DNA of 64,000 nucleotides. Origin: Candidatus Krumholzibacteriia bacterium. Its GTDB lineage: Bacteria; Krumholzibacteriota; Krumholzibacteriia; JAJRXK01. Positions 24,001 through 27,000 of this stretch are shown in pieces. Position numbers: made by a program. Each line of letters begins with the position of its first letter. Within the stretch, counting starts at the first letter, position 1. The stretch is taken from positions 32,545-96,544 of the forward strand of contig JBGPIA010000018.1 in assembly GCA_041484665.1 (NCBI GenBank). Direction: 5' to 3'.

Positions 24001-27000
24001 GAGCCCACCTGCTTCCGGGTCGGTGGATGGGCGCCATCCGGCCGACCGCGACAGTACACAATTTTGGGCCCGGCGTCTTCAAGCTGCCGACTGCTTCCGT
24101 TTCGTAACCGTGAGTACCTCGCCCGCGTTCGGTACCGCCGCGTGTCGTGGTTGGAAACCTCCCTCAGCCACGTCTGGAAAACCACCGAGTCCGCGGCCCA
24201 AGCTCGCGAGTGGCACGACGGGATCACACCGAGTCGAATCACGTTTGCGCGGCGGATTGCGTGTACAATGACATGGAAACTCCGGCGGTGCTTCAACGGT
24301 CCCGACGATGGAGGCGCGATGAAGGCGCTCTGCGGTTTGGCCCTCTGTGGGGCGTTGCTCGTGGGTCCTTCTCTGGCCCCCGCCGCTGCGATCCAGGGTG
24401 TCGACACAGGTACCGCAGGCTTCGTCGGCATGTCGGAGTACGGCCCTCTCGATCAGCCGGTGTTCGTGGGGAGTTTCGCGGAATTCCTGGCGGCCTTCGG
24501 CAGTTCGACTGCCGGACTCCCCCACCCCTACCTTGCCTCGTCGGTCGCCGCCTTCTTCGCGAACGGCGGGCAGCGCCTCTACGTGGTGCGCGTGGCCGGC
24601 GGCGACGATGCCTCTTTCATCGGCGTAGACGGTGGGGCGCTCGGTCTGCGGACCGGACTGCAAGCGCTTCGAGACGTCGATGAGGTCAGCGTGGTCGCTA
24701 TCCCGGGGGCGGTCTCCGGGGCCGGTCCAAGCCGCCATGATCTCGCAGTGCGAGGCCATGCGCGATCGTATGGCGGTGCTCGACCCGGCCACCGCGGTCG
24801 ACATCGATGGGGTCCTGCAGCAGCGTGCAAGCCTGACCTCCACGCTGGGGCACGCTGCTCTCTACTTCCCCTGGATCCAGGCCGCGCCGATGGGTGTCTC
24901 GCTGCTGTTGCCGCCCAGCGGCTTTGTCGCCGGCGCGTACGCGCGCACGGCCCCCCCACAGTCCCCGGCTGGCAACGTGGTGACGGCCACAGGCGTGAGC
25001 GTCAATCTCACGACCCAGCAGCTGGACACGCTCAATCTGGCGGGGGTCGACGCCATCCGGACCTTTGTCGGACTCGGGGTCCAGATCTGGGGCGTACGCA
25101 CCATCTCGAGCGACAGCGACTGGAGATACGTCTTGGTCCGGCGTATGGGTCTGTTTCTCGAGGAGTCCATCTACGAGGGAACGCAGTGGGCGGTGCTCGA
25201 GCCGAACGACGCGATCCTGTGGTCGAGCCTACAACAGTGCGTGGAGAGTTTCATGTACGGGCTCTTCCAGGGTGGCTGGTTCCAGGGCACGACGCCGCAG
25301 CAAACGTTCTTCGTCCGGGTGGACCAGACGACCATGACCCAGCAAGACATCGACGAGGGGCGCACGATCATTGTGGTGGGCTTCGCGCCGGTGCGACCTG
25401 GCGAGTTCGTCATCCTCCAGATCGTGCAGCAGCGGAACTCCAGCACGGGCGCCCCCCCGAGCGCCCCGCAGTCCTACAGCCTGTATCCAGCGGCCCCCAA
25501 TCCGTTCAATCCGAGCACGTCCATCCGGTTCGACCTTTCCGAGGCTGGGCGTGTCGATCTTCGGATCTACGACGTTGCCGGACGCCTGCTCGCAACGCTG
25601 CAGCGCAGCGATCGCATGGAGGCCGGAGCTCATCGGGTGGTCTGGGATGGCCGCGATGGCGAGGGCGCACCGGTGGCTTCGGGCGTGTACCTCTATCGGC
25701 TCGACGCCGGCCCCTTCGCAGAGACGCGCCGGATGACGCTTCTAAAATGAAGGAGTTCGCTGTCCCTACCGGACCGCCGGTCGGAGAGTCTGCGGCAGGC
25801 GTGATGCCGGCCACACCCGGCCGTACGCATGGGGAATCTCCGCGGCGATCAGACATGGGGCTGGCCGCGGGTTTCCAACGGTGGCCTCAGCCGGTCGCTT
25901 CGGTCAATTGCTTCCGACCACGCCCGCAAGGCGATCGTTCCCGACGATCGCTGCGGGCGATGGGCTCACCAGCGTGCAGCCTTCTTGCGCGACCGCGGCC
26001 GCGCCGGCGCTAACTTGGGCGGGTTTGGGGTCGGACGCCTCGGCCGCTGTTTGGCGGACACCGACTTGATCACGGTATAGCCCTTCCCGCTGGCAAGCAG
26101 CGGGGTCTTGCCCTGCGCAATGGCCGCGCGAAGCAGAGACGCGACCGCCGGCTCGTCGAGCTGGGCGATGCTCTCGAGCCGGATGAAGCGCCCCTGGTTG
26201 CCGCTTCCCTCCAGCAGCTTGTGGGGATCGGGGAGCTTGGCCCCCTGCATGAAGTAGAGACTGATCCCCCTGGCGAAGACGGCCAGCGAGACGAAGGCCT
26301 CGGATGTCCGCTCGTTGGGCCCAAAGCCAATGGCGAGGGCGTTATAGTTGTCGTAGACCAGCTCGACTGCGGTCGGGAATCGTCTGCGCAAGACCGCGCG
26401 CGCCGAGCGCACCAGCCTCCCGATGGACGGGTCGAATTTGGCGATGAACCCTGCCAGCTGCTTGGCTGGCGACTCCGGCCGATCCGACTTGGGTGATTTT
26501 TGCGTCATGAAGATCTCCATCAGGGGGCTTACCGGTTCGGCTCCGTTGCTGCCGTGTCAGGTCTGCGGTGCCGGCGCTGCCGTGTCAGGTTTCCGGTGCA
26601 GGCCCCGCGGCGTCGGCTTCAGCGTGACGACACCGCGGCGCGCGCCGGATTCCCGCGGCCACCGGAATTCGCAGCTGCGCGCCATCCATTGCGTGTAGAG
26701 TTCGCGCGGCGGGCGGCGCCAGAGCGACTCAGTCGAACTCACGCCGCGCGGCAGCCTGCTCACGCCCAACGCGCCCGGGCTTGATCTCGGCGATGAAGTA
26801 GTTCTCGCCCCGTACGGGCGCTGCGGCCATCCGCCGCAGCATCGCGATCTGCCCGACGTGCGTTAACGCGTCTGCGACCGGACCCTGGAACAGCTCCTCT
26901 GGCGAGGCCACCAAGGGCTCCTGCGACGCCAGATAGGCGTCGAACCGCTCGAGCCCGCCGAAGAACCGCTCTACCTCCTGCTCCCATGTTCGGGTCGAAG

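Follow-up and report, generated by a model that had tools for sequence, protein, structure and literature searches.

The locus and its gene

Where would a phage-tail sheath protein work if it starts with a signal peptide and ends in a surface-sorting domain? The question is raised by a gene on the forward strand of the window, the 64,000-nucleotide stretch of DNA from a Candidatus Krumholzibacteriia bacterium that was analysed here. A survey of the whole genome had described a full sheath protein spread over two reading frames, with a signal peptide in front and a T9SS type A sorting domain at its end, and translation, tblastn, Pfam and the NCBIfam model TIGR04183 confirm this description. Of the span given for the gene, the end at 25750 stands and the start is corrected from 24316 to the ATG at 24319. 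Read through from this ATG to the stop codon (25748-25750), the local sequence amounts to 476 aa, composed of the signal peptide, an eCIS-type sheath core and a T9SS type A (FlgD-Ig) tail.

A Shine–Dalgarno-like GGAGG (24310..24314), read from the sequence, lies four bases 5′ of the start codon. Translation in frame A opens at 24319 with MKALCGLALC... and continues into the N-terminal half of the sheath. The first 24 residues (24319..24390) have the make-up of a Sec-type signal peptide, with M-K, a hydrophobic stretch and AAA at the end, and they occupy the place at which canonical sheaths carry their handshake arm. The N-terminal half of the core follows in the same frame (24391..24717; HMM E 1e-52). 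A run of four G at 24718..24721 is the site of a +1 frameshift, located through HMM read-through scores and contigs from other sediment samples. Frame B (24632-25750) holds the remaining sheath and the tail. Its share of the core (24722..25436) comprises a subtilisin-like domain, a helical C-domain, a beta-hairpin and the C-terminal strand, as judged from Pfam and from the model of an intact relative. A short linker rich in S, T and P then leads into the T9SS type A/FlgD-Ig C-terminal sorting domain (CTD), which is recognized by FlgD_ig and TIGR04183 and has K as its last residue (25437..25750, stop codon included). All of these features lie on the forward strand.

The tblastn match of the intact relative, the 475-aa protein P0004, to the locus falls into two parts: one frame covers residues 4-134 (66% identity, E 7e-44), the other residues 105-472 (58% identity, E 3e-146). 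Pfam matches of the C-terminal half all exceed their cut-offs (Phage_sheath_1 34.9 bits, Phage_sheath_1C 31.4 bits, FlgD_ig 37.0 bits), and the N-terminal half has a match below cut-off to Gp18_domIII_N. The tail passes TIGR04183 narrowly, scoring 24.4 bits where 23 are required. Among the relatives, P0004 (30.4 bits) and P0005 (24.9 bits) pass this model as well, and P0026 and P0232 remain below its cut-off. The sorting domain itself is widespread in the source genome, where 195 ORFs share it at their ends. A promoter scan at the gene returned no sigma-70 site, and no terminator was found 3′ of the stop. None of the 24 listed runs with the locus is an RNA run, an absence that carries no weight for or against expression.

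Origin of the split

The survey had left a choice between a broken and a mis-assembled copy. The gene is broken in the population: contigs of three of the four sediment runs (X2, which is a possible source, X4 and X5) bridge the frameshift site without a single gap or deviating letter, although rare variants stay hidden in contigs. In the remaining run (X3), two contigs overlap at the site and neither bridges it. Because the identical shift recurs in contigs of three of the four runs, an assembly error is ruled out as the cause, and the shift belongs to the organism's own DNA. The local copy is thus a real and recently broken pseudogene. When X-joined read-throughs are scored with the family HMM, the break is best placed at 24718 (565.1 bits), with 564.3 bits at 24721.

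The two halves are otherwise intact and the site falls within a G run, which would suit a programmed or reversible frameshift that still gives a full-length product. We regard this as improbable, since the run is only four bases long, the split is seen in no relative, the contigs spanning the site hold no second allele, and the neighbouring cargo gene is split as well. This divergent neighbour (23975-21220) encodes a beta-propeller with the same CTD and is interrupted near 22090, so that the locus resembles a stretch of cargo genes in decay. With the local copy dead, the value of the find lies in the family and not in this copy.

Distribution of the family and isolation from tail machinery

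The survey's finding that about 65 of the best 120 database matches combine a sheath with FlgD_ig was confirmed as a true family. Within the phylum, a sheath gene with a CTD occurs in 13 of 208 genomes, namely the source genome and 12 others. The local copy alone is split; two others end at contig ends, and 12 of the 13 are free of an internal stop or split. Of 78 pairs, the eight closest have dN/dS values of 0.10-0.34, and the sheath-CTD family is thus under purifying selection. The exported form was also met in two of 81 genomes around a planctomycete and at two of 80 sheath loci in a metagenome scan. Viral contigs (79 loci together) gave a best identity of at most 48%, with almost no match reaching the CTD. 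In a search for longer fusions (736-2100 aa), none of the 120 matches listed of 185 carries a sorting-domain Pfam.

A presence in 13 of 208 genomes does not suggest a core part of the envelope such as an S-layer. The rarity of the family, together with a local copy that could be dispensed with, counts against the reading as a structural or adhesive surface protein that is favoured below.

The exported loci stand apart from contractile tail genes. A tube gene, as recognized by a profile built from the loci of this analysis, is found in the flanks of none of the 17 exported loci (three of which have fewer than 600 bases downstream) compared with 47 of the 62 other sheath loci. Among the 76 ORFs that flank the exported loci, as delimited by our own ORF caller, none matches a tube, baseplate or spike family, and no neighbour recurs. 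Elsewhere in the genome, a gp19 tube is present in three of the 17 carriers; it was not found in the source genome, which is 93.65% complete. Baseplate_J was detected in two of 21 genomes, a weak test that also misses G014 and G019, both of which have sheath-tube pairs. The source genome does possess a Bacteroidota-type T6SS locus (contig C1), with its own TssC, two TssD, VgrG, TssE, TssF, TssG and a Clp ATPase. The gp25 and VgrG of this genome are part of that separate locus and, as the locus has its own TssC, the genome needs no second sheath.

Cytoplasmic sheaths without a tube are also common (13 loci). Such orphan loci have no common neighbours, except for phosphoglucose isomerase at four actinobacterial loci.

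A signal peptide in place of the handshake arm

Canonical relatives start with a MPEYLSPGVYVEE-type segment and end no more than about 20 residues past the last strand. Tailed sheath proteins, in contrast, have a hydrophobic N-terminus in 72 of 72 cases (57 with a CTD, 14 with a dockerin-like tail and one with a FADGFE tail) and the arm in none. Among the short-tailed proteins, 101 of 109 have the arm and one has a hydrophobic N-terminus. These counts leave out 44 N-truncated rows, and it was a simple rule of hydrophobicity, not a signal-peptide predictor, that served to call the signal peptides. Against the Streptomyces sheath (9gts), alignment of the mature protein begins at about residue 17-20, with about 18 residues lost. 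In the exported family, a signal-like peptide stands exactly in place of the N-terminal handshake arm; the lost segment is probably the handshake strand, judging by its position and the literature, not by coordinates. One more sheath, P0349, bears a signal but no tail, and it lies outside the exported branch described below.

In assembled sheaths, a sheet of four strands is completed by the N- and C-termini of neighbouring subunits and holds subunits and rings in a mesh (PMC10304247, PMC6088184). A study of phage FV3 gp053 states that a protein lacking 29 N-terminal residues forms unordered ribbons and no tubes, and that tubes still form when up to 25 are removed (PMC6357053). This tolerance of a 25-residue loss, whereas only about 18 residues are missing here, counts against the reading that loss of the arm leaves the rings unmeshed.

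Fold of the core and its lost motifs

Structure prediction has shown the fold of the family to be that of a contractile tail sheath (Phage_sheath_1/1C). The model of P0004 (pLDDT 92.6) aligns with the Streptomyces CIS sheath at Z 36.0 and an rmsd of 2.2 over 316 residues, and profile comparison to the same sheath gives E 8e-104. The core measures about 350 aa and is without the outer insertion domain. A search of the ESM Atlas gave no usable match. Of the marks of a working sheath, the N-terminal arm and the tube, baseplate and spike neighbours are absent, and the C-terminal arm strand is present. The latter is kept as a conserved P-x-EF followed by a hydrophobic strand, which the P0004 model places at residues 363-370.

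The state of this last strand bears on whether the subunit is complete by itself. In the P0004 model, the strand (pLDDT 95) aligns to residues 369-372 with the monomeric crystals 3lml, 6gkw and 3hxl, but with most assembled sheaths the match ends at 358. The strand is therefore folded back on its own chain in the model, an argument that uses single-chain models, which are prone to fold a free strand back. A control model of a canonical compact sheath has a poorly defined C-domain (blocks 47-81, last strand 55), although it is a single control and was built from another alignment. Prediction of a homodimer from two copies of the core (residues 24-373) gave a median score of 0.18 against a mark of 0.42, which speaks neither for nor against a dimer.

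The CTD group has also lost much of what arm-bearing sheaths conserve. The GV[HW]xAP-type (GVHKAP-type) lattice motif is found in 231 of 243 arm-bearing sheaths and in 12 of 14 dockerin-tailed proteins, yet in none of the 52 members of the CTD group, which further lacks many residues that are more than 85% conserved in arm-bearing sheaths. The survey had proposed polymerization into a filament or surface layer. This is weakened both by the missing motif and by the signal peptide that takes the place of the arm. A tryptophan has been gained at the end of the long helices, and no gained set of catalytic-looking residues was seen when the CTD group was compared with canonical sheaths. The net charge of helix 297-317, which we take to be the tube-facing one, changes from +1.6 to −2.1; the whole core has become more acidic as well, hence the change is not specific.

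Interchangeable tails and the export machinery

The same sheath core carries at least five types of tail. The T9SS CTD is found in FCB lineages, and the dockerin-like tail in 14 proteins, the named members of which are Planctomycetes. Rarer are a FADGFE tail (P0069), TSP3 calcium repeats (P0236 and P0272) and a hydrophobic tail resembling a membrane anchor (P0235). Only one of the eight members with a dockerin-like tail that were scanned (L014) passes Pfam Dockerin_1. The names “FADGFE tail” and “IPTL-CTERM-like”, like that of the anchor tail, are tentative; none is matched by an HMM.

In a tree built on the core alone, a branch with a support of 99/94 (bootstrap not settled) separates the 41 exported rows from the rest. 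This final tree leaves out three long-branch rows (P0092, P0114 and L085), and with them the support of the branch is 70. In the first tree, the long-branch rows P0092 and P0114 were adjacent to the exported group. Within the exported branch, the type of tail changes five times. These patterns suggest that the sheath core was co-opted once as an exported passenger; its sorting tail has been swapped several times to match the surface-delivery system of the host.

Each of the 17 distinct CTD carriers encodes SprA, which is absent from both dockerin-tail planctomycetes, and PorV and PorU are both encoded in the five of five carrier genomes tested. The models for GldM and GldN had no match in five genomes, but the controls were equally silent, and these searches carry no information. 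In the Bacteroidota T9SS, Sec transports the cargo to the periplasm, the CTD brings it to SprA/PorV, and PorU cuts off the CTD and anchors the protein. By analogy, Sec would carry the sheath-CTD protein into the periplasm, the CTD would direct it through SprA/PorV, and PorU would cleave the CTD and fix the sheath protein on the surface. T9SS function is assumed for this uncultured lineage.

The view taken in the survey, that the sheath has left the contractile machine and bears Sec and T9SS signals, is thus upheld by the isolation of the 17 loci from tube genes and by the accompanying SprA, PorU and PorV. The reading as an exported protein is strengthened by the other surface-sorting tails that occur on the same branch in other phyla.

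Possible function outside the cell

The loss of the arm and the gain of an export signal and of interchangeable surface-anchoring tails point to a new, non-contractile job outside the cell. Without the N-terminal arm, rings would stay unmeshed, and the protein would be expected neither to contract nor to wrap a tube. The C-terminal strand could either fold into its own hairpin, leaving a monomer that resembles the pre-assembly state, or pass to a neighbour and give one-dimensional chains. Bound to the surface, such a core might coat the cell or link it to other cells or to particles as a sturdy structural or adhesive element. We therefore favour, at somewhat better than even chances, an arm-less eCIS sheath core that serves as a non-contractile structural or adhesive surface protein, either in loose chains or as a self-completed monomer. 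The loss of the arm and of the conserved lattice motifs makes a true sheath tube or S-layer less likely.

A bolder and clearly more doubtful proposal is that the arm-less sheath and, separately, the Hcp tube fold were recruited for Sec export, with the sheath polymerizing by donation of its C-terminal strand into a new donor-strand filament or lattice that is anchored by each phylum's own sorting system. The survey had drawn a parallel to an Hcp-CTD protein on contig C28. This signal-peptide Hcp-CTD is real, and what does not hold is a tie to the sheath: exported Hcp occurs in only four of the 17 sheath-CTD carriers and, in a class sample of 60-61 genomes, six of the eight genomes with exported Hcp are without sheath-CTD.

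Also unlikely is a surface polymer of the kind that the survey proposed, in which the exported core would form a two-dimensional layer or an ordered tube of polysheath through exchange of C-terminal strands and body contacts once the CTD has been removed. The C-terminal strand and hairpin are indeed kept, and the dockerin-tail group retains the lattice motif in 12 of 14 proteins. Sheath proteins, as two reports state, self-assemble without tube or baseplate and tolerate some N-terminal loss and C-terminal fusions (PMC6357053, PMC8618960). Against this stand the absence of the N-terminal arm from all 72 tailed proteins, the loss of the motif and of many other highly conserved residues in the CTD group, and the attachment, in some members, of a membrane-anchor-like or calcium-repeat tail directly after the last strand. 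Compared with a loose chain or a non-contractile monomer, an ordered filament or layer is accordingly the less likely state.

There is a slim chance that the protein acts as a surface decoy or trap, the open edge of its beta-hairpin binding, disarming or anchoring attacking phage tails, eCIS or T6SS particles. The sheath fold is known to pair with tail parts, the family is scattered across phyla in the patchy manner often seen for defence genes, and the Hcp tube fold is exported in the same lineages. However, the 76 flanking ORFs show no defence-island context, and the charge reversal of the presumably tube-facing helix is unfavourable, even if the entire core shares the acidic trend. In addition, we know of no assembled tail particle that exposes free arms.

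It is very improbable that the sheath joins exported Hcp-CTD outside the cell in a tube-and-sheath fibre. All three sheath-CTD genomes of the class sample also hold the signal-peptide Hcp-CTD, and one planctomycete has both exported forms. The three, however, are close kin, most carriers lack exported Hcp, the sheath and Hcp genes are unlinked and, to our knowledge, a T6SS-type Hcp is not a natural partner of an eCIS-type sheath. Parallel recruitment of sheath and Hcp is likelier than a joint fibre.

The least credible reading is that the protein has no selected function and arose incidentally from domain shuffling, in genomes where CTD genes number in the hundreds. The 195 CTD-ended ORFs of the source genome, the two frameshifted neighbours at the locus and the frequency of tube-less cytoplasmic sheaths could be cited for it, but the low dN/dS, the 12 of 13 unbroken phylum copies and the retention of a single branch across phyla with repeated replacement of the tail are opposed to it.

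Relation to known systems and wider meaning

The component parts of this family are known; their arrangement is new. No report of a secreted sheath was found in the literature searched, which left most subscription journals outside its scope, and the sheath proteins in the literature examined all work inside contractile machines built in the cytoplasm. If true, a natural, selected and exported arm-less sheath would mean that a stand-alone surface protein can be made from this fold; that tails have been swapped repeatedly across phyla is independent evidence for a job outside the cell. The family also lends itself to testing how much sheath assembly owes to the N-terminal arm. It could furnish a stable secreted scaffold, as well as a marker cargo for T9SS-like and dockerin-like sorting in uncultured lineages. 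For annotation, neither a prophage nor an eCIS should be deduced from a “phage tail sheath” that stands alone.

The closest structures are the CIS sheaths of Streptomyces coelicolor (8bky, 8bl4, 9gts) and of Halogeometricum borinquense (9ezm), which have the same fold at about 40-45% identity and share the hairpin and C-terminal strand. Unlike these, the family lacks both the outer insertion and the arm (residues 1 to about 18), and its members bear a sorting tail and, at the N-terminus, a signal peptide. Its loci have no tube, baseplate or cap gene nearby, and the CTD group no longer has the GVHKAP-type motif. The monomeric, pre-assembly forms of CD1363 (6gkw), Lin1278 (3lml) and DSY3957 (3hxl) have the C-terminal strand folded back, as in the P0004 model. 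These proteins (12-14% identity) differ in that they keep the N-terminal segment, which refolds into the arm on assembly, and are encoded in complete tail clusters.

The architecture of Sec signal, passenger and CTD is the same as in Bacteroidota T9SS type A cargo, with TIGR04183 above cut-off and SprA, PorV and PorU encoded. The differences are that the passenger is a phage-tail sheath and that the host is an uncultured organism of the class Krumholzibacteriia, one for which no demonstration of T9SS secretion was found in the literature searched. Polysheath nanotubes (T4 gp18, FV3 gp053 and RaK2 gp041) are likewise made of sheath without tube or baseplate and are reported to tolerate C-terminal additions. 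They are laboratory products of arm-bearing cytoplasmic proteins, whereas the family described here is natural, arm-less and predicted to be exported.

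Genomic context of the sheath-CTD gene

The frameshifted sheath gene with a T9SS type A/FlgD-Ig C-terminal sorting domain (CTD) is located at 24319-25750 (+ strand), with further genes for CTD-bearing cargo around it. Its divergent neighbour (21220-23975, - strand) encodes a signal peptide, a DUF5122 beta-propeller and a FlgD-Ig CTD, and in the assembled window sequence it occupies two frames, with a break near 22090. Both members of this divergent pair are split across frames. Two other CTD-bearing cargo genes reside nearby, at 16885-18303 (- strand) and 18638-20044 (+ strand), one of which has a weak match to a matrixin-type peptidase.

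Five genomes that carry sheath-CTD genes are rich in PorV-family genes, with 8 to 15 matches per genome in G000 (the genome of the window), G005, G061, G064 and G069, the majority of them over the cut-off. In an uncultured bacterium, a thiol-activated cytolysin domain protein (L001:15160-16794, - strand) is encoded three genes from the sheath-CTD gene.

Putative export signals on other sheath and Hcp proteins

The sheath protein P0349 has a signal-like N-terminus, a partial N-terminal handshake strand (arm) and no sorting tail. As it is placed on the tree beyond the main branch of exported sheaths, it possibly represents a second sheath export event. The combination of a signal peptide, an Hcp domain and a T9SS-type CTD was found in at least nine genomes, and tail-less Hcp proteins with a signal peptide occur in G007 and in one planctomycete. 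The loci of these Hcp proteins are L108, L112, L113, L115, L118, L121, L122, L124, L126 and L111, the last on contig C28 of G000, together with L106.

Cytoplasmic sheaths and fusion proteins

No tube gene was found in the fetched flanks of the compact cytoplasmic sheath loci L018, L019, L021-L026, L028, L029, L032, L042 and L053, whose hosts include Acidimicrobiia, Pyrinomonadales, Rhodothermales and others. The arm is missing or worn in several of these sheaths, which take approximately four positions on the tree, all separate from the exported branch.

In three sheaths (P0143, P0150, P0156), the C-terminal fusion partner is a methylated-DNA-protein-cysteine methyltransferase domain, and the named members come from Sulfurimonas and Thiomicrolovo. 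In P0243, P0328 and P0181, an AAA-ATPase-like domain, recognized by eye, precedes the sheath, or a Pvc16_N domain accompanies it. A gp19 tube-like domain is present near the C-terminal end of a planctomycete RHS/YD-repeat ORF (L099:1-2094, + strand).

T6SS locus of G000

Contig C1 of G000, a Krumholzibacteriia-class genome, carries a Bacteroidota-type T6SS locus (200000-222849; L211, L212). It encodes TssC, two TssD, VgrG, TssE, TssF, TssG, a Clp ATPase and a double-GTPase protein.
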